This document shows positions 29,548 to 64,000 of a DNA stretch of 64,000 bases, piece after piece. Source of the DNA: Roseburia sp. (GTDB lineage Bacteria > Bacillota > Clostridia > Lachnospirales > Lachnospiraceae); NCBI GenBank assembly GCA_023662875.1, contig JAMPIG010000002.1, positions 54,597 to 118,596 on the forward strand. Reading direction: 5' to 3'. Numbering within the stretch: the first letter of the stretch is position 1; each line of letters opens with the position of its first letter. Under the pieces are notes generated by a model. The model was not told where the DNA came from. It worked only from the letters and a program-made list of their open reading frames with translations, and did not search any database. The position numbers and the translations under genes were made by a program.

Positions 29548-30651
29548 GTGAGAAGGAGAATGGTATCGCTGCTGTTGGCGGCGGTTGTCAGTGTGGCATG
29601 GGCTTTTCCTGCGGCGGCCGCGGCGGAGCGGGAGGAGCTGGAGGAAATTATCCGGGCGTACGAGGAATACGAGGCGGCCTTCGCGGCGATTGAGAAGACG
29701 GGAGATATCGGGGAGAACGGTTTTTTCGTCATCGAGGATCAATGCTTTCCCGTCGTGCTGGAATCCTTTCTGGACGGGGAGACAGAGGTCAAGTTTATCC
29801 CGGTGATGTATGAGGAGTATAACCGGCTGGGAATCCTGATTGCGGACGAGAAGGGAAGGGTTCTTTATAAGTCGAATCAGCTGGAGACGAATCATCAATG
29901 GCTGGGGCTTATGGAGCAGCCGAACCGGGGGATTGCGGCGGTCTCCTTCCAGGATCTGGATCGGGACGGGCTGACGGATATTGTTCTGATTACGGACTGC
30001 ATCAACGAAGAAGAGGAGCCTGAAAGGCACTATAAGATCGGCGACGTGCTATTTCAGCGGGACGGTTCCTTTTACCGGGACTGGAGGATTTCTGATAAAA
30101 TCAACCGATTTGGCATGAATAAAAGCGTGGATTTTATTACCTCCTACGTCCGGGACGGGAATTCGACGGAGATTCTGTATACGGCGACTACGCTGGAGGA
30201 GCTGCTCGATAACGGCTTTCAGATGACCCGGGAGCACTGCTATTACCGGAATTTCGAGAAGCAGGGAACCCTGCAGGTAGTGCCGGGAATTATTAAGATG
30301 GCGGAGTATAACGTCTTTATGATTTACCTGGTGAACCGGCAGGGCTATATCGAGTGGAGCTTCCAGCCCATGGCCGACTACGATAACCTGTATGCCCTGA
30401 AGGGAATGGCCTGCAAGGATTTGGACGGGGACGGGATGAAGGATATCGTGGTATTGGGAAGGTACAGTTATTCCGGCCCGGAGAATGAGCTGCTGATCGA
30501 TACAAGATGCTCCATTTACTATCAGAGAACGGACGGATTTGCGGAGGATAAGGAATTTCAGGACTACTATACCTGCACCGGCGCGGATACGGTAAGCGGG
30601 TTGGTACGAATGATTCGGGAATACTGGGGGTGGACGGTAGAAAATGATTAA
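29548..30651 (+). CDS. Secreted protein with two DxDxDG (FG-GAP/VCBS-like) calcium-binding repeats
   Basis: Signal peptide; DLDRDGLTDI and DLDGDGMKDI in two similar halves. Confidence 0.75.
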   Translation: MRRRMVSLLLAAVVSVAWAFPAAAAAEREELEEIIRAYEEYEAAFAAIEKTGDIGENGFFVIEDQCFPVVLESFLDGETEVKFIPVMYEEYNRLGILIADEKGRVLYKSNQLETNHQWLGLMEQPNRGIAAVSFQDLDRDGLTDIVLITDCINEEEEPERHYKIGDVLFQRDGSFYRDWRISDKINRFGMNKSVDFITSYVRDGNSTEILYTATTLEELLDNGFQMTREHCYYRNFEKQGTLQVVPGIIKMAEYNVFMIYLVNRQGYIEWSFQPMADYDNLYALKGMACKDLDGDGMKDIVVLGRYSYSGPENELLIDTRCSIYYQRTDGFAEDKEFQDYYTCTGADTVSGLVRMIREYWGWTVEND

Positions 30652-31297
30652 GATACTGATTGTGGATGACGAGAAACCGATCTGCGACCTGATCGGCATT
30701 AACCTGACGGCAGCGGGGTACGAGTGCACCTCCGTGCAGGATGGGCTGAAGGCCATCGACCTGATCGATCGGGAGCAGTTTGACCTGATTCTGCTGGATA
30801 TCATGCTGCCGGGGGCGGATGGCTACGATATCATCGAATACATCCGGCCGCTGAAAATTCCGGTGATTTTTATTACCGCGAAGCATGAGGTAAAGGATCG
30901 GGTAAAGGGGCTGAAGCTGGGAGCGGAGGACTATCTGGTAAAGCCCTTCGACGTTGTGGAGCTGGTGGCGAGGGTAGAGGTGGTGCTGCGGCGCTACAAC
31001 AAGACGGAGAGCGTGCTCACGGCGGGGGATGTCGTGGTAGACACGGAGGCGAGAAAGGTGACGAAGGCGGGGAAGCCCGTCGTCGTGACCAATAAGGAGT
31101 ACGGCCTGCTGGTTCTTTTTATCCGGAATAAGAATATCGCGCTGTTTCGGGAGAATCTTTATGAGAAAGTCTGGGGGGACGAATATCTGGCGGACAGCCG
31201 GACGCTGGATCTGCACGTGCAGCGTCTGAGGCGCAAGATGGGCTGGGAGGACAACCTTGTGGCGGTATATAAGGTGGGCTACCGGCTGGAGATTTGA
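30644..31297 (+). CDS. OmpR family response regulator
   Basis: VDDE, LLDIMLP, ITAK and DYLVKPF; C-terminal winged helix (RTLDLHVQRLRRK). Confidence 0.95.
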   Translation: MIKILIVDDEKPICDLIGINLTAAGYECTSVQDGLKAIDLIDREQFDLILLDIMLPGADGYDIIEYIRPLKIPVIFITAKHEVKDRVKGLKLGAEDYLVKPFDVVELVARVEVVLRRYNKTESVLTAGDVVVDTEARKVTKAGKPVVVTNKEYGLLVLFIRNKNIALFRENLYEKVWGDEYLADSRTLDLHVQRLRRKMGWEDNLVAVYKVGYRLEI

Positions 31298-31314
31298 GGG
31301 GGCAAGTGCGGGAT

Positions 31315-32745
31315 ATGAAATTTCTCTATAAAATCTTGCTGTGGGTGATTATCATCATGGCGACAGCCCTCGGGCTGAGCGGGTATTTTTTCGTAAATTA
31401 TGTATTCCAGACGGCGCTGGATCGGGAGATCGAGCAGGCGCTGGACGACAGTAATATCCTGCAGTTTGCCTTTGAGACGGCGGCGCTGAACGTGCCTACG
31501 AAATATAATGTGCTCCGGGATACCGCCATAGAACAGATCGGCGCGAAGCTGGAGGGCGGAGGAAACGGCTCCGGGCGGCTGCTGCGGATTTCTGACGAGA
31601 ATAAGAAGGCGCTTTATGTCAGCGAGGGTTTTCCAGAGGATCAGGCGCTCCTGGAGAGCATTACGGAGAATACCAGAAGCTGGCAGGTAATCCGACTGGA
31701 GGAGCATTATTATATCCAGACGGGGATGCCGGTCAACGCGCTTGACAGAAGGCTTTATATGGAGACTATGGAGGATGTGACCGAGGTGTTCGCCGAGCGG
31801 ACGATGGGATTTTCTGTCTACCGGCAGGTGACCCTTGCCATGCTGGCAGCCAGCGCGGCGGTGATGTTCCTGATCGGAACGTTTTTGACAAAGCCCATCC
31901 GGATTTTGGCGGGGGCGACCCGGAAGATGGCGGCGGGAGATTACGGGTATCGGGCCAGGCAGATCAGCAGCGACGAGCTGGGGCAGCTGACCCAGGATTT
32001 TAACAGCATGGCGAACGTACTGGAAGGGACGATCGGGGAGCTGAAGGAGGAGGTTCGGGCCAGGGAGGACTTTATCGCGGCCTTTGCCCATGAGTTGAAG
32101 ACTCCCCTGACGGCGATTATCGGCTACGCGGATCTGCTGCGCTCCAGGAAGCTGGACGACGAGAAGCATTTCCTTTCCTCCAACTATATTTATACGGAGG
32201 GGAAGCGGCTGGAAAATATGTCCTTCCGCCTGTTGGATATCATCGTGACAAAGCGGGAGCAGATTCTGCCACAGAACGTCGAGGCAGGGAAAATTTTTGA
32301 ATATCTGGAAGCGATGTTCGCGGGAAATTCCGAACAGGAGCTGAGGGTTTCCTTCGAAAAGGGGACGGTATGCGCGGAGATTAACCTGATTAAGTCGGTG
32401 CTGCTGAATCTGGTGGATAACGCCTTTAAGGCTTCCGCTTTCGGCGATATTGTAGAGGTATCGGGGCGGAATCTGGAGAAGGGGTACGAGTTCCGCGTCC
32501 GGGATTACGGCGTGGGAATCCCGGCGGAAGAGGTGAAAAAGGTGACGGAGGCCTTTTATATGGTGGATAAGTCGCGGTCGAGGAGCCGAAACGGCGCGGG
32601 GCTGGGACTTGCCCTCTGCGTGGAAATCCTGCGGCTGCACGAAAGCGAGCTTCAGATCGAGAGCAGGGTAGGTCAGGGAACCTGTATCAGCTTTATTCTG
32701 CCGCAGAGAAAGGAGGAGCGGGCCGATGAAAAGAAGGATCGCTAA
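31315..32745 (+). CDS. HAMP-domain sensor histidine kinase
   Basis: 2 TM segments and HAMP; FAHELKTPL H-box, NLVDNA, DYGVGI, FYMVDKSRSR and GAGLGL. Confidence 0.95.
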   Translation: MKFLYKILLWVIIIMATALGLSGYFFVNYVFQTALDREIEQALDDSNILQFAFETAALNVPTKYNVLRDTAIEQIGAKLEGGGNGSGRLLRISDENKKALYVSEGFPEDQALLESITENTRSWQVIRLEEHYYIQTGMPVNALDRRLYMETMEDVTEVFAERTMGFSVYRQVTLAMLAASAAVMFLIGTFLTKPIRILAGATRKMAAGDYGYRARQISSDELGQLTQDFNSMANVLEGTIGELKEEVRAREDFIAAFAHELKTPLTAIIGYADLLRSRKLDDEKHFLSSNYIYTEGKRLENMSFRLLDIIVTKREQILPQNVEAGKIFEYLEAMFAGNSEQELRVSFEKGTVCAEINLIKSVLLNLVDNAFKASAFGDIVEVSGRNLEKGYEFRVRDYGVGIPAEEVKKVTEAFYMVDKSRSRSRNGAGLGLALCVEILRLHESELQIESRVGQGTCISFILPQRKEERADEKKDR

Positions 32746-53926: not shown

Positions 53927-55369
53927 ATGCGGCCGGATGAGAAATTGGAGCCTACAAAACAGGAGTTGAGGAGAATAAAAACGAAAGAGGGACAAAGGGA
54001 AAAAGACAGAAGAGGAAAAAGCAAAAGAGGAAGAGGCTGGCTGATTCTCGCGATAGCGGGGTTGATTCTGGCCTTGAATATAGCGGCCTGGAGCAGTACG
54101 GCTTTCTGCGACTGGTATATCGCGCATATCTTTCCGATCTGGGTCAATACCTACGGCCGTATCACGGGGCTTTTCCCCTTTTCCGTAGGGGAGTGGCTGA
54201 TCGCCGCGGGGGTTCTGCTGCTGGGGGCGGCGGCAGTGATCGCGGTTCTCTGCGGCGTCTGCGGCATTGTAAAGCTGGCGGGGCGCGGGAAGCGCATTAA
54301 GGACACCGTTTCCGAAGGCGAGTGTGTGTGCGGGAGTTCGGGAAAAGCGGTCGAAGCTTCGATGCGTGCAGATGCGGCGGCGTCGGCGCAAGTCAGGGAA
54401 AAGCCGCTCAGAGCCGAGAAAGCTTTTCTGAGGTTTGCCGGAAAATTTTACCGCTTCTTCGGCTGGACGCTGCTGGCGGTCTGCCTGATCATGACCCTGA
54501 ACTGCCTGATTTTATACCATGCCTCCACCTTCTCGGAGCATTATTTCGGGGAGGACAACGGGGAATATTCCGCGGCGGAGCTGGTCGCCCTCTACAATAT
54601 GGTGGCGGAGGAGTGCAACCGTCTGGCGGGAGAAATAAAACGAAACGAGGCCGGGGAGGCGGTTTACGAAAGTCCTCAGGGTACGGAAATTTCCGTGCGG
54701 GACGCCGAGGGCTGGAAAAAGGGGCTGGGAGAGATGGCCGATGAGGCAGGCGGCCTGATGCGGCAGCTGGGAGAGCGGTATCCGCAGCTGAGGGGCTGGT
54801 ATCCGCGGCCCAAGGCGCTGGTCTTTTCGGACTTTATGTGCCAGCAGTATATGCAGGGCTACTATTTCCCCTTTTCCATGGAGGCAAATTATAACGACGT
54901 CATGCATATCCTGAATATCCCCTCGACTATGTGCCACGAGCTGGCGCACCTGAGAGGCTATATTTATGAGGATGAGGCAAACTTTATCGGTTATCTGGCC
55001 TGCGTGCAGTCGGAGAATCCTTTCTTTCAATATGCGGGATACCTCAGCGTCTTAAACTACCTGTACAACGACGTATACAAGCTGAGGACGACTGCCCCCG
55101 GGACTTACGAGGCCGCGCTGGCTGTCATTACCCCGGTTACCGTTTCGGAACAGGTCTGGAAGGACAATATCTTTGTGGCTGACGAGGAATGGGATCGAAT
55201 CAACGGCAAGGCGCTGCTGGACACGGAGTTTGTGGACGCGGCGGCGGACGTATTTATCGATACGAACCTGAAGGTGAACGGGGTCGCCGACGGGAAGTTC
55301 AGCTATAATCGGGTAGTGCGGCTGCTGATGCAGTATTACAGGCAGGAGCTGGGAGTTGTTTGGGATTGA
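53927..55369 (+). CDS. DUF3810 family membrane-anchored putative zinc metallopeptidase
   Basis: PFSVGE, GYYFPFSMEANYN, CHELAH (HExxH) and EDEANF; start codon uncertain. Confidence 0.82.
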   Translation: MRPDEKLEPTKQELRRIKTKEGQREKDRRGKSKRGRGWLILAIAGLILALNIAAWSSTAFCDWYIAHIFPIWVNTYGRITGLFPFSVGEWLIAAGVLLLGAAAVIAVLCGVCGIVKLAGRGKRIKDTVSEGECVCGSSGKAVEASMRADAAASAQVREKPLRAEKAFLRFAGKFYRFFGWTLLAVCLIMTLNCLILYHASTFSEHYFGEDNGEYSAAELVALYNMVAEECNRLAGEIKRNEAGEAVYESPQGTEISVRDAEGWKKGLGEMADEAGGLMRQLGERYPQLRGWYPRPKALVFSDFMCQQYMQGYYFPFSMEANYNDVMHILNIPSTMCHELAHLRGYIYEDEANFIGYLACVQSENPFFQYAGYLSVLNYLYNDVYKLRTTAPGTYEAALAVITPVTVSEQVWKDNIFVADEEWDRINGKALLDTEFVDAAADVFIDTNLKVNGVADGKFSYNRVVRLLMQYYRQELGVVWD

Positions 55370-55443
55370 CAAAAAGTATATATTTGCGATGAAAGTAAAA
55401 CGCTTCGTTAAAACAGGAAGAGATAAGGAGAGACAGAATACGG

Positions 55444-56412
55444 ATGGAATATAAGGAAAGAGTTAATTTTCAGGCAAAATTTGAGCCTGAGGGAAATTAT
55501 ATTCTTCACGGGACGGGACAGTATGATATTCTGGAAAAATTCAGTTCTTATGACAGATATCGAAAATGTCTGCCGGAGACTCCGCCGATTATGACGATCG
55601 CCTTTGTGGGACTTTATGATGATGTTCGATATGATCTGTTTGCGGCGTTGATCAATACGCATATTCATTCTTACACAAACAGCAGCTATATATTGCCGCA
55701 GATCGGCGTAGAGTTTTGCAGAGACGAAATGCCGGGGACAAATTACGAGCAGGAGATTGCGGCCGGAAAGCGGGATGAGGAAATCCGCAGATTTATGCGG
55801 GCTATGAAAACGATCGACCGGCCTGTGTTCATTCGTCCCGGCTACGGTTTTAACGGCGAATGGAACGGTTATGATCCTGAGAACTATAAAAAAGCCTTTC
55901 GCAGGATGAAGGATATTGCGGAGGAAGTGGAGTGTCAAAACTGCTGCTTTTCCTGGAATTACAATCCTGCCGCCAGAGAGAAGGACTATATGAAGTATTA
56001 TCCCGGAGACGCGTATGTAGACTGGTGGGGAATCGATATTTTCCAGACGCCGGAGGAGTCCGCGCCATACGCCTATACGTTTTTGGAGGATGCGGAGAAG
56101 CACAGAAAACCGGTTATGCTGGGAGAAGCGACGGCCTACCGATATGGGACAAGCTACGAGGGATGGCAGAAGTGGTTTGTTTCCTATTTTCGTTACATCA
56201 AGCAAAATCCGGTTATCAAGGCGGCGTGCTATATTAATTGGGACTGGACGCAGTATGCCAAGTGGTCTAACTGGGGAGACTGCAGAATAGAGACAAACGA
56301 AGAATTGGTAAAATTATTTAAACAGGAATTATCTACTCCGGTATGGCTTAATGATGTTGACAGGCAGACCGTCCGTAATCTGCTGAAAGTAAGCAAGTGG
56401 GGGTTGGAATGA
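55444..56412 (+). CDS. Cytoplasmic GH26-like protein lacking the acid/base glutamate (probable pseudoenzyme)
   Basis: FEPEGNYILHG, RPGYGFNGEW, YYPGDAYVDWWGID and KPVMLGEAT; no signal peptide; paralogue of 60538-61629. Confidence 0.8.
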   Translation: MEYKERVNFQAKFEPEGNYILHGTGQYDILEKFSSYDRYRKCLPETPPIMTIAFVGLYDDVRYDLFAALINTHIHSYTNSSYILPQIGVEFCRDEMPGTNYEQEIAAGKRDEEIRRFMRAMKTIDRPVFIRPGYGFNGEWNGYDPENYKKAFRRMKDIAEEVECQNCCFSWNYNPAAREKDYMKYYPGDAYVDWWGIDIFQTPEESAPYAYTFLEDAEKHRKPVMLGEATAYRYGTSYEGWQKWFVSYFRYIKQNPVIKAACYINWDWTQYAKWSNWGDCRIETNEELVKLFKQELSTPVWLNDVDRQTVRNLLKVSKWGLE

Positions 56413-57971
56413 GGATACTGATCGTAGGGGAAAATCGCGGCTATGAGGATTTGATACGGGCCACGTCTGCGGGAAAACAGTGTCGGATAAATTTTATGGG
56501 ATATCAGGAGGCACTGGAGATTTCTTTTTCTGCACCTTTGGTGTTTGTGGAGGCAAAGGTGGGGGATCCTCTGGGCTTTAATGTGGGAAGGACAATTTTG
56601 CGGCACTTTCCGGAAACAAATCTGATCTTTTTAATGAAGGAATGTCTTTTTGAATACTCCATGGCGGCTATGCGTATGGGCGCGAAAAATATTCTGGTGG
56701 ATCAGGAGATTAATCCGGAATCTATGGAACAGCTTCTGGAGCGATACGGAGACCTGAAAGAGGATGTGGGGCGCGAAGCGGCGGACAGAAATTTTGAGCG
56801 TATGATTTTCCGGCATAATGACGGGGAAGAGAGAGATTGGAGCATCCGGGCGCTGAATGATATCTTTGGCATGAAGGACGGAGAAAAGAGCTTTTATGTA
56901 ATGATCGTTACCAGCCTGACCTTTGTCCAGAATCAGCTGAAAGAGGATCCCATGAGCAGAAAGGTTTCCTGCGAAAGGGTGAAGGAGCGTCTGAGGCAGT
57001 ATCGAGGCCCGTTTTTTTCGATCCCCTTTGTCTTCTATGTGGATCAGCAGTTTTATATGGTTGTATTATGCCGGGAGGATGGCCTGCCGGAGGAGCCGAA
57101 AAAAAGGATTGAGCTGCTGCAGGAGCGGATTTACGGAGAGGGTCTGGAAGTATTGGGGGAGGATCAGATGATCCTGAGCTCCGGAGAAAAGGAAGACTTT
57201 CGACAATTCGGAGAATGCCTGGATGAATTGGAGCAGATGAAGGAATCCATGCACTGCGGCAGCTATCCCTATATGGTGAGTCGGTATAACAATAGTATTA
57301 AAAACCGTAGTCGTAAAAGGGAGCAAAATCCTGACGAGTGGATCGAGACTGGCCGGAAAGCGCTGGAGATCATGGAGGCGGGCGGCGAATACGAAGCTCA
57401 GATCCGGAAATTGTTTTCTCTGGAAAGTATGGAGGAAATTACCTTTTCACAGTTTATGAAGGTGAAAAAGAGTATGGCGTTTGAGCTGGAATCCTTTTAT
57501 AAAAGGATGCAGGGAGAGATTACGGATGGAAGGCAGGTTGAGGAAGAGCTGGAAAAGCTGCAGCCGTACTGTAATTATATATATGCGAGGGAGCAAATCC
57601 TGAAGATTGCGTCAATGCTGACGGAGCGCTGCGTGAAAAGGTATCATCCACTGGTGGCTCAGTGTATCCGCCGGATATCGGAAACCTACGCTTCCGATAT
57701 CAGTCTCCAGGAAATGGCGGATCAGCTGAATATCAGCAGCGTATATCTCAGCTCACTGTTCCGAAAGGAGACAGGAGAGAAGTTCAGCGCATATGTCAAT
57801 CAATACCGGCTTCAGAAGGCCAAGCTGTTGATTGACGGCGGTCAGCCCTTGAATATGGTTTTTGAAGCGGTTGGGTTCTTAAATCAGCAATATTTCAGTA
57901 ATTGTTTTAAAAAGGCTTACGGTATGACGCCCAGCGAGTATAAAAATCGAATGCAGGGTAGAAACCTGTGA
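56409..57971 (+). CDS. YesN-like AraC regulator with a degenerate (pseudo-)receiver domain
   Basis: N-terminal ILIVGEN...VFVEAK...FEYSMAAMRMGA; C-terminal ISLQEMADQLNISSVYLSSLFRKETG...TPSEYK; ATGA overlap with the upstream gene. Confidence 0.85.
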   Translation: MRILIVGENRGYEDLIRATSAGKQCRINFMGYQEALEISFSAPLVFVEAKVGDPLGFNVGRTILRHFPETNLIFLMKECLFEYSMAAMRMGAKNILVDQEINPESMEQLLERYGDLKEDVGREAADRNFERMIFRHNDGEERDWSIRALNDIFGMKDGEKSFYVMIVTSLTFVQNQLKEDPMSRKVSCERVKERLRQYRGPFFSIPFVFYVDQQFYMVVLCREDGLPEEPKKRIELLQERIYGEGLEVLGEDQMILSSGEKEDFRQFGECLDELEQMKESMHCGSYPYMVSRYNNSIKNRSRKREQNPDEWIETGRKALEIMEAGGEYEAQIRKLFSLESMEEITFSQFMKVKKSMAFELESFYKRMQGEITDGRQVEEELEKLQPYCNYIYAREQILKIASMLTERCVKRYHPLVAQCIRRISETYASDISLQEMADQLNISSVYLSSLFRKETGEKFSAYVNQYRLQKAKLLIDGGQPLNMVFEAVGFLNQQYFSNCFKKAYGMTPSEYKNRMQGRNL

Positions 57972-58012
57972 CATAATGAAAGCGTTTCCTTTTGGAAACG
58001 CTTTCATTATGT
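57971..58012. promoter_or_regulatory. Perfect 19-bp inverted repeat whose arms are cre/LacI-type operators; may also be a terminator
   Basis: ACATAATGAAAGCGTTTCC-TTTT-GGAAACGCTTTCATTATGT. Confidence 0.65.
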
Positions 58013-58132
58013 TAATATGCTGAAAAATTATAAAAAATCCTTGATTTTGTTTGTAGAAAAGGGAAAAGCGTTTTTGTAAGATAAAGATACGAAAGGAAAA
58101 TGCCGAAATGCGGCGGAGACAAGGAGGAGAAG

Positions 58133-59170
58133 ATGAGTAAGGTTAAAAAGATGCTGAACATGTTGTTGGCGCTCTGCCTTTGCGCAGGGCTGCTTTCCGG
58201 ATGCGGGGAGAGAAAGGTTGAGGAGGTCAGGGTAAATCAGCCCTCCATTACGCTGGAGGAGGGGCAGTCGTACCAGCTTTCCACGAAGGTTTTGCCGGAG
58301 GACGCTCCGCAGGAGGTAACGTTTGCTGTATCTGATAACGGCGTGGCTACAGTGGATCAGGAGGGAAACATAACCGCTGTCAGCCCGGGGGAAGCGGTCG
58401 TCAAGGTTATGGCGGGCGATAAAGAAGCGAGCTGCATGATTACCGTAGAAGCGAAGCCGGTGGAGAATGCCCCGGAAAATCTGCCGGTGGCGGATGCGGT
58501 CAATGGGTTCAAGCCTTTTGTACCCGGAGGATTACTTGGCGGCGAGGGCGGAGAGTATTATTCGGTTACGGTATCTCCGGTAGAGGATAATGCCGTTATG
58601 TTTTCAGGAAAAGGAGGATTCAGCTGGCCGGATACGGTAAATATGCCGGTTCCCAGCGCTATGGGAGGTTACTATGACGGGGAGCTTGCTCTGGACGGAT
58701 TAACCTTTACTTACAGACTGGATCAGGAAATGGAGTTTGCGGGAGATCACTGGTATGTCGTCGCGTTGGAGGACAGATGTCAGTTATTCAACAGCTGGAA
58801 CGGTGAAGATCCTTCCAAGACGTTATTTATCATGATCGGTTTCGAAGAAGGAAGGGTTTATTTACAGCCGCATTACAGGGATGTGATCGATTTGGGAGAA
58901 AGCTGGAGCTATTTAGGGAAGAGCGAGGGCGTAGAGTATGCCCAGGGTGATACCGTGACGATACGGCTTGAAAAGGCGGAAGAAGGATATTGTATTTATT
59001 TAAACGAACAGTTGCAGACCTTCGACAACATTAATTCTTCCTATATTACAATTATTCCAGAGCTGTTTCCGGAGGAAAAGGTATGGTTAATGGCGGCGGC
59101 CCATATTGGGAACCCTGAGGATCAATATGAGGGAGAGTATGCATTTACTCTGGGGCTTGTCAGAGATTAA
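58133..59170 (+). CDS. Lipoprotein with bacterial Ig-like (Big_2) domain and an unknown C-terminal domain
   Basis: Lipobox LLSGC; ITLEEGQSYQL...SDNGVATVDQEGNITAVSPGEAVV; aromatic-rich C-terminal domain. Confidence 0.8.
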   Translation: MSKVKKMLNMLLALCLCAGLLSGCGERKVEEVRVNQPSITLEEGQSYQLSTKVLPEDAPQEVTFAVSDNGVATVDQEGNITAVSPGEAVVKVMAGDKEASCMITVEAKPVENAPENLPVADAVNGFKPFVPGGLLGGEGGEYYSVTVSPVEDNAVMFSGKGGFSWPDTVNMPVPSAMGGYYDGELALDGLTFTYRLDQEMEFAGDHWYVVALEDRCQLFNSWNGEDPSKTLFIMIGFEEGRVYLQPHYRDVIDLGESWSYLGKSEGVEYAQGDTVTIRLEKAEEGYCIYLNEQLQTFDNINSSYITIIPELFPEEKVWLMAAAHIGNPEDQYEGEYAFTLGLVRD

Positions 59171-59224
59171 CCGGGTAATGACGATATGTCGGAAGACCCG
59201 CGGAGGCGGGTGATTGGAGCGGGC

Positions 59225-60499
59225 ATGAGGAAAACAGGAATTTTAATTTTTATGTTTTTACTGCTTACAGGCTGTCTGACGGCTTGCGGAGAAAAAGACG
59301 GCGTCGGCGACAGGCTGATGATCTGGAGCTATGATACCACGACGACGGAGGCAATGGTAGAGGAGTATCAGAAGATATATCCTGACACGGAGATTGAGAT
59401 AGTGCCTGTGGATGGCAATTCGTATGAACAGCTGCTTCAGACAGCGCTTTTTGCGGAATCTGAGGTTCCGGATATTATCTGGGGGGATTACTTCAGCAGA
59501 GGGAAAATCTTTTCGCTGGATATCTGCGAGGATCTGTCGCAAGCTCCGTATCAGCTGGATACGAGCCTGGTCAGCCCCTGGGTGCTGGAGCTTTGCCGGG
59601 ATGAGGAAGGAGCGCTTCTGGGGATCGAAAGCGGGCCCGCTCCTACAGGCTTATTATTCAAGCGGGATATTTGCAGGAAATATCTGGGAACGGACAATGA
59701 GGAAGAGCTTTCCGCCATGTTTTCAACATGGGATGGTTTTCTGGAAGCTTGCTGGACGATTTATAACGAAAGCAATCACGAGGTGATTCCTTTCGCCAGC
59801 CTGGGGGATGTGTACTGCGTTGTAGTGGGTATGCTGAACATCCCGTATATGGTTGACGGGGAACAGAATATTGAAAAGGTTTGTGACGGAGTGTTTCCTC
59901 TGATGGAAATTTTTATGAAGGAAGGTCTGTGCGGAAGGATAGATCAGTGGACAGCGGCTTATTACAGCTCCTATAACAATGATAAATATGCTTTTCATAT
60001 CTGTCCGGCATGGTGTCCTGACTATCATATTAAGGAAAATGCCCCGGATCAGGCAGGAAATCTGGGGATCTGTCTGCCTGCAGGCGGGAAAATGTTCAGT
60101 TTCGGGGGAACCAGTTTCAGTATTTATAAAGGCTCGAAAAACAAGGAAGGGGCATGGCGGTTTATTGAGTGGACGCTTTTAAGTGAAGAGGGACAGAGGA
60201 ATGTACAGGCAAATCTGATTTCCCATGGAGGAAGCGGAGGAATTGGAACCCTTGCCACATTATATAAAGACCCTATGTATGATCGGGAGGATGCCTTTTT
60301 TGGCGGACAGAATATCCTGAAATTCTTTTCGGAGAATATGGATAAAGTGAACGGTCGGCCGGTGACAAAGTATGATACGGCATTTGGGGATTCCCTTGGA
60401 CTGGTATTGAATTCCATGAAAAACGGCTTGTCTGCGGAGGAATGTAAAAATAATGTGATGGCGGAGCTGAAGCTGAAGCTGCCGGAGCTTTTCGAGTAG
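59225..60499 (+). CDS. Carbohydrate ABC transporter solute-binding lipoprotein (family 1)
   Basis: Lipobox LLTGC; PDIIW, LLFKRD, GGTSFSI and KEGAWRFIEW. Confidence 0.88.
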   Translation: MRKTGILIFMFLLLTGCLTACGEKDGVGDRLMIWSYDTTTTEAMVEEYQKIYPDTEIEIVPVDGNSYEQLLQTALFAESEVPDIIWGDYFSRGKIFSLDICEDLSQAPYQLDTSLVSPWVLELCRDEEGALLGIESGPAPTGLLFKRDICRKYLGTDNEEELSAMFSTWDGFLEACWTIYNESNHEVIPFASLGDVYCVVVGMLNIPYMVDGEQNIEKVCDGVFPLMEIFMKEGLCGRIDQWTAAYYSSYNNDKYAFHICPAWCPDYHIKENAPDQAGNLGICLPAGGKMFSFGGTSFSIYKGSKNKEGAWRFIEWTLLSEEGQRNVQANLISHGGSGGIGTLATLYKDPMYDREDAFFGGQNILKFFSENMDKVNGRPVTKYDTAFGDSLGLVLNSMKNGLSAEECKNNVMAELKLKLPELFE

Positions 60500-60537
60500 C
60501 GGGGATTCAGAGGCCTTGGAATGAAGTGGAGATTTGA

Positions 60538-61629
60538 ATGAAAAGAATATGGAGAATGGCAGCGGCGATTATGAGTACACTTACTATTTGCGGCAGCCTT
60601 ACCGGCTGCCGGATCCTTTTCGGGGATGGGCAGGATAAGGCTGCGGACAATTTGTCTGAAAATTACGAGACGCGTGTGGATTTTGGAGCTAAATTTGAAC
60701 CAAAGGGAAATTATATCCTTCATGGAGCAGGGCAGGATCAGTCAGGAGTTACCGTCACATTTGACAATTATACGAACATGATGGGTCAGGATAGTATGCC
60801 GGTGATAACGATGGGATATGCGGCTCCCCATCATAACTATGTGGACTGGGCGTCCTATATGAAGAAAGGAATAGAAGCCTACGGAGAAGAAAGCTATCTT
60901 TTTTTGCAGGTAGGGGTTCACTTCAACAGGGACGAGAATCCGGATGAATGTTATTATGACGAGATCGCGGAGGGTAGAATGGATATGGAGCTGAAATCTC
61001 TTATTCTGACACTGAAATCCTTCCAGCGTCCGGTGTTCTGCCGGCCGGGCTTTGAATTTAATGGTGAATGGAACGGATATACGGATGGAGAAATTTATAA
61101 AAAGGCTTTTGCACGCTTCGCGGAGCTGATAGAGGAATGCGAGGCGGAGAACATCGCCTTGCTGTGGTGTTATAACCCGGACGGCGCAGAAAAGGATTAC
61201 ATGAAATATTATCCGGGGGACGACTATGTAGACTGGTGGGCGATCGATATTTTTCGGATCGGGAGCGCTGAATCAGCGGAAACAAAGGCTTTTTTAAATG
61301 ACGCTGTCTTTCATGAGAAACCGGTGATGATTACGGAGGCGACGCCTTACGGATACGACGTTACAAAGGGAGAGGGCTGGGAGGAGTGGTTTGAACCGTA
61401 CTTTCAGTTTATCAGAGAAAATCCTGTAATTAAGGCAACCTGTTATATCAACTGGAAATGGTACGATTATCCTCAGTGGGCGAATTGGGGAGATGCCAGA
61501 TTGGAAGAGGCACCGGAGTCTCTTGCCGAAAAATATCGGGAAGAATTAGGGGATCCGGTTTATTTACATGCGGGAGAGAAAGAAGACATGATCGATTGCC
61601 TGTATGATTGCAGGGATTACGGAAAGTGA
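60538..61629 (+). CDS. GH26 family glycoside hydrolase lipoprotein (catalytically intact)
   Basis: Lipobox SLTGC; RPGFEFNGEW (acid/base Glu), YYPGDDYVDWWAID and KPVMITEAT (nucleophile). Confidence 0.85.
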   Translation: MKRIWRMAAAIMSTLTICGSLTGCRILFGDGQDKAADNLSENYETRVDFGAKFEPKGNYILHGAGQDQSGVTVTFDNYTNMMGQDSMPVITMGYAAPHHNYVDWASYMKKGIEAYGEESYLFLQVGVHFNRDENPDECYYDEIAEGRMDMELKSLILTLKSFQRPVFCRPGFEFNGEWNGYTDGEIYKKAFARFAELIEECEAENIALLWCYNPDGAEKDYMKYYPGDDYVDWWAIDIFRIGSAESAETKAFLNDAVFHEKPVMITEATPYGYDVTKGEGWEEWFEPYFQFIRENPVIKATCYINWKWYDYPQWANWGDARLEEAPESLAEKYREELGDPVYLHAGEKEDMIDCLYDCRDYGK

Positions 61630-61637
61630 GGAGAATT

Positions 61638-62570
61638 ATGGCATCTTCCGACAGAAAAAGCCATCGGACAAATAGAATAGCGCCGTATCTGTTTTGCGCT
61701 CCTTTTTTTATTACTTATTGTGTGTTTACCCTGTTTTCTATGGCTTTTACTTTTGTACTGAGTTTTACGGACTGGAACGGGTTTGGCAGGATTGAGTTTA
61801 TTGGACTGAAAAACTATGCCCGTATGTTTAATCTGTCTGCAGATCCCCGCTTCCTGCAAACCCTGCTGAACACAGCGGTCATCGTAGTAATGACCGTGCC
61901 TGCGGGAATATTTCTGGCGCTGTTTTTATGTTACTTTCTGCAGAAGAGGACGGTCAGGAGGAAACATATTTTTCGGGTTTTGTTTTACTTACCGGCGCTG
62001 ATGACGGCGGTAGCGGTAGGGCTTCTCTGGGCTACGCTTTTTGACTATGAAAGCGGTACGGTCAACTGGCTGCTGAAGGCGCTGCGAATTTCGGCGGGCG
62101 GTATTAATTGGATGGGAAGCGCCTGGGGATGCAGGCTCGTTCTGGCAATTCTGATCGTCTGGTCAAGCTTTGGAAGTACCATGCTCTTTTTTTCATCGGC
62201 ATTGACGTCGGTGTCGGATGATGTGGTGGACGCGGCCCGGATGGACGGCGCGGGATCAGTAAAAATATACTGCAGGATCTGTATCCCTATGATCAGCGAC
62301 GTGATGATATTTGTAATTATTACCAGCCTGATTAATTCATTTCAGCTGTATGATGCGCCGGTGATGCTTTTCAGCTCAGGCCCATCCGGAGGTCTGCCCT
62401 ACGGAGGGGTAGACAGAAGCTGTCTGACGATGGTGATGCTGATTATGGACGAAGCTTTCAGCAATATGCATTATGGCTACGCAGCGGCGCTTTCCTACGG
62501 TATGTTTCTTTTTATCTCGTTTTTTTCATTTATCAGCGTCAGGCTTATGACCAGGGAGAAGGCGGCGTAA
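61638..62570 (+). CDS. Carbohydrate ABC transporter permease
   Basis: PYLFCAP, FIGLKNY, EAA-like DAARMDGAG; 6 TM segments. Confidence 0.92.
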   Translation: MASSDRKSHRTNRIAPYLFCAPFFITYCVFTLFSMAFTFVLSFTDWNGFGRIEFIGLKNYARMFNLSADPRFLQTLLNTAVIVVMTVPAGIFLALFLCYFLQKRTVRRKHIFRVLFYLPALMTAVAVGLLWATLFDYESGTVNWLLKALRISAGGINWMGSAWGCRLVLAILIVWSSFGSTMLFFSSALTSVSDDVVDAARMDGAGSVKIYCRICIPMISDVMIFVIITSLINSFQLYDAPVMLFSSGPSGGLPYGGVDRSCLTMVMLIMDEAFSNMHYGYAAALSYGMFLFISFFSFISVRLMTREKAA

Positions 62571-62637
62571 GGAGAGCCTGAGGGCATCGCAACAAATTCT
62601 GCGAACGGGCGCGCTGAAACGCGTAAGGGGTATATAC

Positions 62638-63462
62638 ATGAAAAAGAAAAAGATGTTTGAGAAGGGGACGGCATATGGCATTTTGGGACTTTTTGCCATA
62701 TCTACGCTGTTTCCGTATTACTGCATGATTGTTATGGGGACGCACAGCAATGCCGGTCTGTTTTCCGGTCTGAAACTCTGGTTCGGAGACAGTCTGAAGG
62801 AGAATTTTACGCGGCTGGTGGAGTCAGGATATATCCGGTATTTTCTGAATTCGCTTATAATTGCCGTACCCGCGACAATATTGACGCTGCTTTCCGGCTC
62901 TATGGGAGGATATGCGCTGGCGAAGTATCAGTTCCGAGGAAAAAGGTTTTTGATATCTTTCGTATATATTACGCTGATGCTTCCGGGATCTCTCGGCACG
63001 ATCGCATGGGTCTGGGAGATGAAAAAATTTGGTTGGATCGATACCTATCTGCCCTTTATTATTCCGGCCATGGGAAATACGTATGCGGTTTACTGGTTTA
63101 TGCAGTTGTCAAAGGGGGCTATCCCGGATGAAATTCTGGACAGCGCCAGAGTGGACGGGGCGGGCGAATACTGTATCTTTTTCCGCATTGCGTCGCCTCA
63201 TCTGCTGGCGGGGGCGGCATCCCTGGGACTGCTGAATTTTGTGGGGGCATGGAACAGCTATCTGGGGCCTTCCCTGATTCTGAAGAAGCAAAGGCTATAT
63301 ACCGTACCGATCGGCATCGCTACTATGGGATCGCAGTTTCGGTCGGAGTACAGCACGCAGATATTGGGAATGACTATTGCGGCGATCCCGCTGATTCTTT
63401 TGTTTGCCTGTACATCCCGCTATTTTGTGGCGGGTATTGTAGGAGGCTCGGTAAAAGGGTAG
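62638..63462 (+). CDS. Carbohydrate ABC transporter permease
   Basis: FLNSL, GYALAKYQFRG and DSARVDGAGEY (EAA motif). Confidence 0.92.
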   Translation: MKKKKMFEKGTAYGILGLFAISTLFPYYCMIVMGTHSNAGLFSGLKLWFGDSLKENFTRLVESGYIRYFLNSLIIAVPATILTLLSGSMGGYALAKYQFRGKRFLISFVYITLMLPGSLGTIAWVWEMKKFGWIDTYLPFIIPAMGNTYAVYWFMQLSKGAIPDEILDSARVDGAGEYCIFFRIASPHLLAGAASLGLLNFVGAWNSYLGPSLILKKQRLYTVPIGIATMGSQFRSEYSTQILGMTIAAIPLILLFACTSRYFVAGIVGGSVKG

Positions 63463-63472
63463 GAAACAGAAT

Positions 63473-64000
63473 ATGAACAGAGCGTATGCCAAAAAGGCGG
63501 CGAAAGCGCTGGTCGCGCAGATGACATTGGAGGAGAAAGCTTCCCAGCTTCTCTACAATTCCCCGGCCATAGAGCGGCTTGGGATAAAGGAATATAACTG
63601 GTGGAACGAGGCGTCCCATGGTGTGGCGAGGGCAGGCACAGCGACGGTATTTCCACATGCGGTCGCCATGGCGGCAACTTTCGACCCCGCGATGATAAAA
63701 ACGGTTGGGGAGGCAGTGGCGGAGGAAGCCAGAGCAAAGTATAATGAGAACAGGAAAGAGGGAGATCGGGATATTTATAAGGGGTTGACTTTCTGGACGC
63801 CAAACCTGAATATCTTTCGGGATCCCCGTTGGGGAAGAGGACAGGAAACCTTTGGGGAGGATCCTTATCTTACCGCTGTAATGGGCTGCGAATATATAAA
63901 CGGCCTGCAGGGGGAGGGAGAGTTCCTGAAATCCGCCGCCTGCGCCAAGCACCTGGCCGCGCACTCCGGGCCGGAAGCCCTGAGGCACAGCTTTGATGCG
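63473..64000 (+). CDS. GH3 beta-xylosidase-like glycoside hydrolase (5' part, runs off the window; absent from the ORF track)
   Basis: MTLEEKASQL...YNWWNEASHGVARAG, GLTFWTPNLNIFRDPRWGRGQETFGEDP and KHLAAHSGPE. Confidence 0.9.
   Translation, partial: MNRAYAKKAAKALVAQMTLEEKASQLLYNSPAIERLGIKEYNWWNEASHGVARAGTATVFPHAVAMAATFDPAMIKTVGEAVAEEARAKYNENRKEGDRDIYKGLTFWTPNLNIFRDPRWGRGQETFGEDPYLTAVMGCEYINGLQGEGEFLKSAACAKHLAAHSGPEALRHSFDA

Follow-up and report, generated by a model that had tools for sequence, protein, structure and literature searches.

AmiC/AmiR and NasS/NasT are systems of the same kind. In AmiC/AmiR of Pseudomonas aeruginosa, a regulator with an aspartate-less receiver is governed through direct contact with a ligand binder, as recounted in the passage of PMC4395418 that draws on its ref. 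17. Here we describe a gene pair of comparable layout in a 64,000-nucleotide stretch of Roseburia sp. DNA (contig JAMPIG010000002.1 of assembly GCA_023662875.1; ‘the window’ is this whole stretch, numbered from its first letter). The first gene encodes a cytoplasmic GH26 paralogue (P0001) with Gly in place of the acid/base Glu, and the second a YesN-type AraC regulator (P0002) whose receiver has lost its phosphorylation residues. The likeness to AmiC/AmiR, as far as that passage describes it, lies in adjacent genes, a cytoplasmic ligand binder (here a candidate one), a receiver without the phospho-Asp and the absence of a kinase. The differences are that the AmiC sensor has a PBP fold and binds amides, whereas P0001 is a GH26 TIM barrel; that AmiR ends in an ANTAR RNA-binding antiterminator, whereas P0002 ends in an AraC DNA-binding domain; and that the AmiC/AmiR complex is proven, whereas the present pair is known from its genes alone.

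We tentatively propose, at somewhat below an even chance, that the two genes encode a kinase-free sensor–regulator pair, in which the acid/base-null GH26 protein binds an imported, linkage-specific oligosaccharide and, through contact, alters the state of the aspartate-less receiver. The module is proposed to serve a horizontally acquired locus for the utilisation of β-1,3/1,4 (or β-1,3) xylan.

Each element of this proposal has a described counterpart. The YesN/YesM systems and AraPST (AraT, Geobacillus) have the same succession of REC domain, GGDEF-like linker and AraC helix-turn-helix (HTH) as P0002 and a like role in controlling sugar importer and glycosidase operons; P0002 differs from YesN in lacking all the phosphorylation residues and an adjoining YesM-type kinase. 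Regulators with an aspartate-less receiver (ALR), such as RitR, HP1043, ChxR and FrzS, also combine a receiver fold without the phospho-Asp with phosphorylation-independent control, but most act alone or through other modifications, and PMC4395418 describes none that has an enzyme-derived sensor as its partner. Enzymes that act as regulators, the trigger enzymes, are known as well, for example MalY, which sequesters MalT (PMC3715855, PMC10427625). In these systems and related inhibitors (MalY, Aes and MalK acting on MalT; YciR), a protein of enzyme fold controls a transcription factor by contact and links substrate to transcription, as proposed here; those proteins are active moonlighting enzymes, whereas the acid/base is missing from the whole clade of P0001, which would therefore be a dedicated pseudoenzyme sensor. 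Finally, the RsgI anti-sigma factors of Clostridium thermocellum use GH10 and GH5 modules as polysaccharide sensors (PMC6852018). They share with our proposal the reuse of a glycoside hydrolase fold as a polysaccharide sensor in Clostridia, but their modules are extracellular parts of a fusion with a membrane anti-sigma factor, and their signal reaches a sigma-I factor through proteolysis, whereas the sensor proposed here would be unfused, cytoplasmic and directed at an AraC regulator.

A first-pass annotation of the window, made from its letters, had stated that no system of this layout was described. Literature searches returned no account in which a YesN/AraC pseudo-receiver is coupled to a glycosidase pseudoenzyme that is free in the cytoplasm, and for that combination the statement appears to stand; it is too broad with regard to AmiC/AmiR, the trigger enzymes and the RsgI sensors, which resemble the pair in part. 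What appears to be new is the combination of a glycosidase-derived pseudoenzyme partner with a YesN/AraC output, the separate elements all being known. Far less is understood of how individual glycans are recognised by Gram-positive bacteria of the gut and rumen than of the same process in Bacteroides.

The GH26 paralogue and its missing acid/base

The following features define the first gene of the pair.

55444-56412, + strand: GH26 paralogue P0001, 322 aa, of the mixed-linkage xylan (MLX) xylanase type (Pfam, AlphaFold2 (AF2)/Foldseek)
55846-55848, + strand: codon GGT for Gly135, aligned to Glu147 of AlXyn26A (alignment)
56038-56091, + strand: residues 199-216 (IFQTPEESAPYAYTFLED), candidate functional surface (clade-specific conservation)
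56125-56127, + strand: codon GAA for Glu228, the kept nucleophile, equivalent to Glu243 of AlXyn26A (alignment)

The nearest solved relative of both GH26 proteins of the locus is AlXyn26A (7xjr/7xs3), an enzyme specific for red-algal β-1,3/1,4 MLX (PMC10470212). Its acid/base is Glu147 and its nucleophile Glu243, and a change of either one to Ala abolishes activity; ten residues are listed as holding X3X4X in subsites -2 to +1 (PMC10470212). P0001 matches the Pfam family PF02156 (GH26) with 35.3 bits against a cut-off of 20.2, and is 34% identical to AlXyn26A and 47% identical to the lipoprotein GH26 encoded at 60538-61629. No signal peptide is present in the 322-residue open reading frame at 55444-56412. 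The GH26 acid/base Glu that follows β4 is absent: the region reads RPGYG135FNGEW in P0001, RPGFEFNGEW in the secreted paralogue and YE147FEGDW in AlXyn26A. These results bear out the first-pass description of a GH26 paralogue without signal peptide or acid/base Glu.

The remainder of the active site is largely retained. The nucleophile Glu after β7 (E228) is invariant in 107 of 107 homologues, and P0001 shares with the AlXyn26A/Xyn26A MLX-ases seven of the ten X3X4X-contact residues: Q26, Y134, W140, F200, W268, W274 and W277 correspond to Gln43, Tyr146, Trp152, Phe215, Trp285, Trp296 and Trp299 of AlXyn26A. Asp108 and Phe294 of that enzyme are conserved in neither paralogue, and its Tyr67 was not mapped. 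The AF2 model of P0001 is a (β/α)8 barrel with a pLDDT of 95.8 that superimposes on 7xjr with a TM-score of 0.86-0.91 and a root-mean-square deviation of 1.8 Å (Foldseek), other GH26 structures ranking next. The predicted fold, the kept residues and Gly135 together indicate that P0001 is an intact MLX-ase-like barrel minus one catalytic residue; it differs from the MLX-ases further in being cytoplasmic and in having a loop 2 that is shorter by 5 residues.

The acid/base position is Glu in 93 of the 107 homologues, Gly in 12 and Ala in 1. All 12 Gly variants are cytoplasmic proteins with 66-83% identity to P0001 (the frameshifted P0013 has 55% overall), and Gly135 is invariant among them; since all 12 belong to one clade, the occurrence of Gly at this site is beyond chance. 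The clade is monophyletic with support of 100/99, has a long stem and short internal branches, and is sister to the secreted Firmicutes-type paralogues, in a tree that includes 11 of the 12 Gly proteins and leaves out the frameshifted P0013. A sequencing error at codon 135 was considered and is ruled out by the retention of Gly in 12 clusters.

The sole other homologue without Glu at this position is P0035 (L045:1307-2467), which has Ala (VGLAFNADFHNY). It has a signal-like N-terminus and lies in a tandem array with another secreted GH26, on a short contig without an AraC gene. In the tree P0035 joins the Gly clade, though at the end of a long branch (1.24), and its loss of Glu may be either shared with that clade or independent.

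Several cleft residues are exchanged between the Gly clade and the secreted paralogues (clade/secreted: E90/His, C92/Asn, Y58/His, A176/Asp). Glu90, at the end of β3, is invariant in the clade. Conservation of residues 199-216 is 0.91-0.95 in the clade versus 0.50-0.61 in the secreted paralogues, and this patch, beside the +1 stacking/subsite Phe (F200), is a candidate for a new functional surface.

These changes could also be those of an enzyme with altered chemistry, which would act through an acid/base relocated to Glu90, on substrates with good leaving groups or by transglycosylation, and would process imported oligosaccharides or make or destroy the true inducer. LacZ, which makes allolactose, offers a parallel for an inducer-making enzyme. 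The invariant nucleophile and subsite residues are compatible with this explanation, as are the active-site changes specific to the clade, E90 for His and C92 for Asn among them; moreover, P0001 is a cytoplasmic endo-type glycoside hydrolase, and the other cytoplasmic enzymes of the locus are exo-acting. We nevertheless consider it improbable. Activity is unlikely because the acid/base is missing, and natural glycosides have poor leaving groups. An acidic β3 residue occurs alongside a normal acid/base in active-type homologues (15 with Asp, the ‘other’ group), so a residue at this position seems more likely to hold sugar than to act as the catalytic acid. In AlXyn26A, the nearest enzyme that has been characterised, the acid/base mutant E147A is inactive (PMC10470212).

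The rate of change of the locus genes speaks to the state of the pseudoenzyme. The majority of the loci compared are on metagenome contigs. Identity to the window orthologue is 81-83% for the Gly-GH26 protein (67% in a lineage that carries a GH52 gene), 65-80% for the binding protein, 66-82% for the permeases, 70-82% for GH3, 57-71% for the secreted GH26, 52-65% for the Big_2 protein and 33-54% for the regulator. Of all genes of the locus, that of the pseudoenzyme therefore evolves most slowly and that of the regulator most rapidly, and by this measure the pseudoenzyme is under strong purifying selection. Loss of one catalytic residue might suggest a decaying, functionless duplicate, but the reading frame is intact, identity within the clade is 66-83%, no gene of the locus evolves more slowly and the AF2 model is of very high confidence; decay is accordingly a very remote prospect.

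The regulator and its pseudo-receiver

The second gene of the pair comprises the following features.

56409-57971, + strand: YesN-type AraC regulator P0002, 520 aa (Pfam HTH, hhalign, AF2/Foldseek)
56409-56750, + strand: pseudo-receiver domain, aa 1-114 (hhalign, AF2)
56610-56714, + strand: β4-α4-β5 of the receiver, aa 68-102, with the motif CxFEYSMxAMRMGxxNILVxxEI, candidate contact surface (conservation)
57639-57971, + strand: AraC-type double HTH, aa 411-520 (Pfam, PDB matches)

In Pfam, P0002 matches HTH families only, PF12833 (HTH_18; 74 bits) and PF00165 (HTH_AraC). The N-terminal and middle parts (first 400 residues) match no Pfam family at E = 10, Response_reg included. The receiver is recognised solely by profile–profile alignment and fold. 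In hhalign, P0002 aligns end to end with YesN-type regulators (1-516 against 2-532), and its AF2 model (pLDDT 84) contains a (βα)5 receiver at 1-114 and a GGDEF-like α/β domain at about 160-291, followed by the HTH. Foldseek matches are to REC-GGDEF proteins, the AraT REC and the HTH domains of YesN and AraT.

Every phosphorylation residue of this receiver is replaced: the Asp-Asp pair by G7-E8, the phospho-Asp by E48 (56550-56552), Ser/Thr by M76 and Lys by D98. The nearest canonical relatives of P0002 keep DD, D, T and K, and in the source genome canonical REC-AraC genes retain both the phospho-Asp and the Asp-Asp pocket. The first-pass annotation had described a YesN-like regulator devoid of phosphorylation residues, and the hhalign and AF2 results agree; the domain is an ALR as defined in PMC4395418. 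Phosphorylation by a kinase encoded elsewhere was considered and is ruled out, the acceptor Asp being absent.

A receiver of this kind need not have a partner. The two genes could be co-transcribed without partnership, with a regulator that senses by itself, through its GGDEF-like domain or its pseudo-receiver in the manner of atypical response regulators that bind ligands, or is constitutive, and a Gly-GH26 protein that separately binds or buffers imported oligosaccharides in the cytoplasm. We regard this as somewhat unlikely. Aspartate-less receivers do often act without any partner (PMC4395418), and a Glu at the phospho-site can mimic phosphorylation, according to the part of that article that cites its ref. 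31. Members of the present family, however, have E, A or I at the phospho-site, and a phosphomimic Glu is therefore no requirement.

Conservation in the regulator is concentrated in two regions. The β4-α4-β5 segment (68-102) has a mean pairwise identity of 78% and the HTH one of 71%, with 42-51% for the rest, and the β4-α4-β5 motif persists in regulators that are just 32-33% identical overall. Like that of the Gly-GH26 proteins, the regulator family is small and closed: it forms 16 clusters in a set of 5.8 billion proteins, and a hidden Markov model scan of 1.84 billion representatives returned about 6 full-length regulators before the E-value dropped from 2e-92 to 2e-9, at which point ordinary receivers appeared. 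A word-based search with residues 1-410 of P0002 recovered just part of the family.

Coupling of the pair, its operator and the proposed mechanism

The gene junction, the region between the pair and the structural operon downstream, and the nearest kinase of the window contain the following features.

56409-56412, + strand: ATGA stop/start overlap of the P0001 and P0002 genes (sequence)
57969-58014, + strand: hairpin with a perfect 21-bp stem, right after the P0002 stop (-31.7 kcal/mol, z = -12)
58019-58056, + strand: conserved operator of the TTAAAAAAWTRCAAAAA-N5-TTAAATGYGTTTSTTG type, adjoining a weak -35 (position weight matrix)
58075-58082, + strand: extended -10 (TGTAAGAT) of the structural-operon promoter (alignment of 10 promoters)
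30644-31297: OmpR-type regulator beside the kinase, 23 kb upstream of the pair
31294-32745: histidine kinase, HAMP-HisKA-HATPase_c, unrelated to the locus (Pfam domains)

The ATGA overlap named in the first-pass annotation is present in the sequence, and tight junctions recur elsewhere: the genes overlap by 4 nucleotides in L001-L003, L004/L005 and L042 and by 13 in L006 and L038-L041, and are separated by gaps of 8 nucleotides in L007 and 23 in L044. In every locus with enough flanking sequence, the Gly-GH26 gene lies directly 5′ of the pseudo-receiver AraC gene, in about 10 upstream contexts. The upstream neighbours of the pair vary and include DUF3810, BrkB, PadR, mutarotase, GH32/43, α-amylase and GH52 genes. 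A scan of genome contigs yielded two true relatives only, both in Oscillospiraceae metagenome-assembled genomes (MAGs); the other 28 loci matched in the HTH alone and were used as background for the operator matrix.

The first-pass annotation had reported no kinase in or before the locus within the window. A kinase does occur in the window, 23 kb upstream, beside its OmpR-type regulator; what holds is that none adjoins the pair, here or in any locus compared. The nearest one seen, in L006, is encoded on the opposite strand some 6 kb upstream and belongs to an OmpR-type pair of no relation to the locus, and the three PF06580 kinases of the source genome each lie on another contig. The check named in that annotation gave a positive result: in each of the loci with sufficient flanking sequence, L001-L007, L038-L044 and L046, the missing Glu, the degenerate receiver and the lack of a kinase beside the pair go together. 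Homologous loci with an active GH26 copy in that position or with a cognate kinase were sought, and none was found.

L046 is otherwise like L006, but at 2006-2659 it encodes a protein of 217 aa (P0104) in which residues 1-55 of the pseudoenzyme are joined to the last ~160 residues of the regulator (HTH), the remaining locus being intact. P0104 may have arisen in assembly, as an artefact, or may be a variant that occurs in nature and lacks the sensor. As the sole fusion it was considered as Rosetta-stone proof of partnership and rejected, being the product of an in-frame deletion.

According to the first-pass annotation, the pair and the structural genes formed a single operon headed by the pair. 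This was not upheld: the hairpin at 57969-58014, together with a separate operator and promoter (58019-58082), intervenes, so the pair probably forms a transcription unit of its own. Hairpins with T tails stand at the equivalent site in L001, L005, L006, L007 and L038, and the hairpin of the window is probably a terminator or RNA end between the pair and the structural operon. A consensus scan for terminators and promoters called neither this hairpin, which has no T run, nor the activator-dependent promoter. Ten promoters align on the TTAAAAAAWTRCAAAAA-N5-TTAAATGYGTTTSTTG element, which ends beside the weak -35, about 22 nucleotides before the -10, with TATAAT or TAAAAT boxes at a fixed distance from the operator.

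A position weight matrix built from structural-operon sites only places its best match in the 64-kb window at 58019-58056 (37.4; next 11.8), and the structural-operon site is the top match in each locus. The second-best match lies where expected, before the operon of the pair, in L007 (26.7), L040 (25.9), L042 (20.7), L006 (15.6), L005 (15.1) and L044 (14.7), compared with a top score of 24.5 and a next of about 15 in 540 kb of unrelated loci. The three strongest pair-side operators are clearly above noise, and the weaker ones rest mainly on position. In L038 an operator before the pair was seen by alignment and with the first matrix and was missed by a stricter one. In one sub-lineage (L004/L005, L042, L044), a GH52 β-xylosidase-family gene heads the operon of the pair with an operator in front, the pair-side operator standing 5′ of GH52 in L005, L042 and L044. 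Because the operator precedes both units in most relatives, the pair is probably autoregulated there by the factor that drives the structural operon, and P0002 is the candidate for that factor. In the window and in L001, its closest relative, expression of the pair may be constitutive or may depend on read-through from DUF3810.

These data can be assembled into a mechanism. The polymer would be cut by the secreted lipoprotein GH26, and the resulting oligosaccharides would be imported via the ABC system. In the cytoplasm the GH26 paralogue would bind a diagnostic oligosaccharide without cleaving it; we propose binding without cleavage because the nucleophile and the contacts of subsites -2 to +1 are kept and the acid/base is Gly. 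Occupancy would then alter the contact of P0001 with the receiver of P0002, probably at the invariant β4-α4-β5 face, and the regulator would act at the operator adjoining the structural-operon -35 and, for most relatives, also at the one before its own operon. The first-pass annotation had proposed an inactive glycosidase that signals by contact in place of a kinase; the gene comparisons fit this in part, and sugar binding by P0001, its contact with P0002 and operator binding by P0002 are inferred. The contact might release a sequestered activator, as in AmiC/AmiR, or might serve co-activation.

A more specific form of the proposal, which we hold still more tentatively, is that a glycosidase-derived pseudoenzyme took the place of the histidine kinase in a YesN/YesM-type system. 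The result would be a ‘pseudoenzyme plus pseudo-receiver’ pair, in which a naturally acid/base-null GH26 holds, in the cytoplasm, a linkage-specific oligosaccharide from the substrate of its parent enzyme and relays this by direct contact to an aspartate-less receiver joined to an AraC domain.

The organisation of the loci also bears on co-transcription without partnership. The locus moves as one low-GC island, so linkage alone is weak evidence for a functional pair, and in one lineage GH52 is found in the operon of the pair, as a partner-free arrangement would allow. Yet the order and tight coupling of just these two genes are kept while every other neighbour and the internal content vary, the probable terminator sets the pair apart, and the pseudoenzyme is more constrained than any true enzyme of the locus.

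Several observations weigh against a kinase-free sensor–regulator pair. The clade-invariant Glu90 might restore some chemistry to P0001. The regulator diverges fast outside residues 68-102, and these residues could just as well form a surface for dimerisation or for contacts within the protein. Neither in the window (55370-55443) nor in L001 (L001:9915-10000) was an operator detected 5′ of the pair. As GH52, a true enzyme, shares the operon in one sub-lineage, the unit is not purely regulatory. A true gene fusion of the pair was not found among the compared loci, P0104 being a deletion product.

Should the kinase-free pair be confirmed, it would reveal a simple route to a linkage-specific sensor, namely to duplicate the degrading enzyme, remove the acid/base and dock the product on a kinase-less regulator, the specificity of the sensor being inherited from the catabolic enzyme by duplication. 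The whole polysaccharide locus would be self-contained for horizontal transfer, and a sugar-sensing case with DNA-binding output would join the very few known partner-controlled pseudo-receivers. The pair would amount to a compact, portable two-gene switch for β-1,3/1,4-xylo-oligosaccharides.

Structural operon, substrate and origin of the locus

Downstream of the operator, the structural operon contains the following genes.

58133-59170, + strand: Big_2 surface lipoprotein (Pfam; start moved from 58100)
59186-60499, + strand: ABC solute-binding lipoprotein (Pfam)
60538-61629, + strand: secreted, MLX-xylanase-like lipoprotein GH26 that keeps both catalytic Glu (Pfam, phmmer)
61608-62570 and 62638-63462, + strand: two ABC permease genes (Pfam)
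63473-64000, + strand, continuing to about 65578 past the window end: GH3 glycosidase, 701 aa (Pfam)

Pfam thus agrees with the intact GH26, ABC importer and GH3 named in the first-pass annotation, and phmmer relates the secreted GH26 to AlXyn26A with E = 2e-58. For the Big_2 gene, the ATG at 58133 (MSKVKKMLNMLLALCLCAGLLSGC, lipoprotein signal; preceded by AAGGAGGAG) is a likelier start than the first ATG at 58100.

GH52, a gene 3′ of the locus at L007:14106-15425 that we take from its N-terminal sequence to be a xylose isomerase, and an FGGY kinase (possibly a xylulokinase) 3′ of the locus at L038:21205-21551 identify the locus as a xylan/xylo-oligosaccharide system. Together with the kinship to AlXyn26A, these neighbours point to a xylan with β-1,3 linkages. 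As covered in PMC10470212 and PMC12125979, characterised systems for β-1,3 and mixed-linkage xylan come from marine bacteria, and those of gut Bacteroides are inferred; the β-1,3-xylan regulator so far described is of the XylR type, unrelated to P0002. Whatever the mechanism of its control, the locus is a candidate mixed-linkage or β-1,3-xylan utilisation system in gut and rumen Clostridia.

The locus was probably acquired horizontally. Its GC content is 0.46-0.49 over 55000-63000 of the window, compared with 0.52-0.57 upstream; of 401 genomes from the same taxonomic family, just 1 carries the GH26; and the most similar loci come from gut and rumen samples, in MAGs of Oscillospiraceae.

Two further features of the loci are recorded here. 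The Big_2 protein ranges from 345 aa to 1401 aa (58133-59170 in the window, compared with L001:12679-15969 and L007:5709-9914) through repeats of an unannotated module of ~250 aa, which may be a glycan-binding repeat. In L043, on a contig of GCA_023156115.1, the locus occurs in a MAG labelled Bacillus subtilis, a doubtful taxon label; its GH52, GH26-like, AraC and Big_2 genes are split by frameshifts that look like long-read assembly errors.

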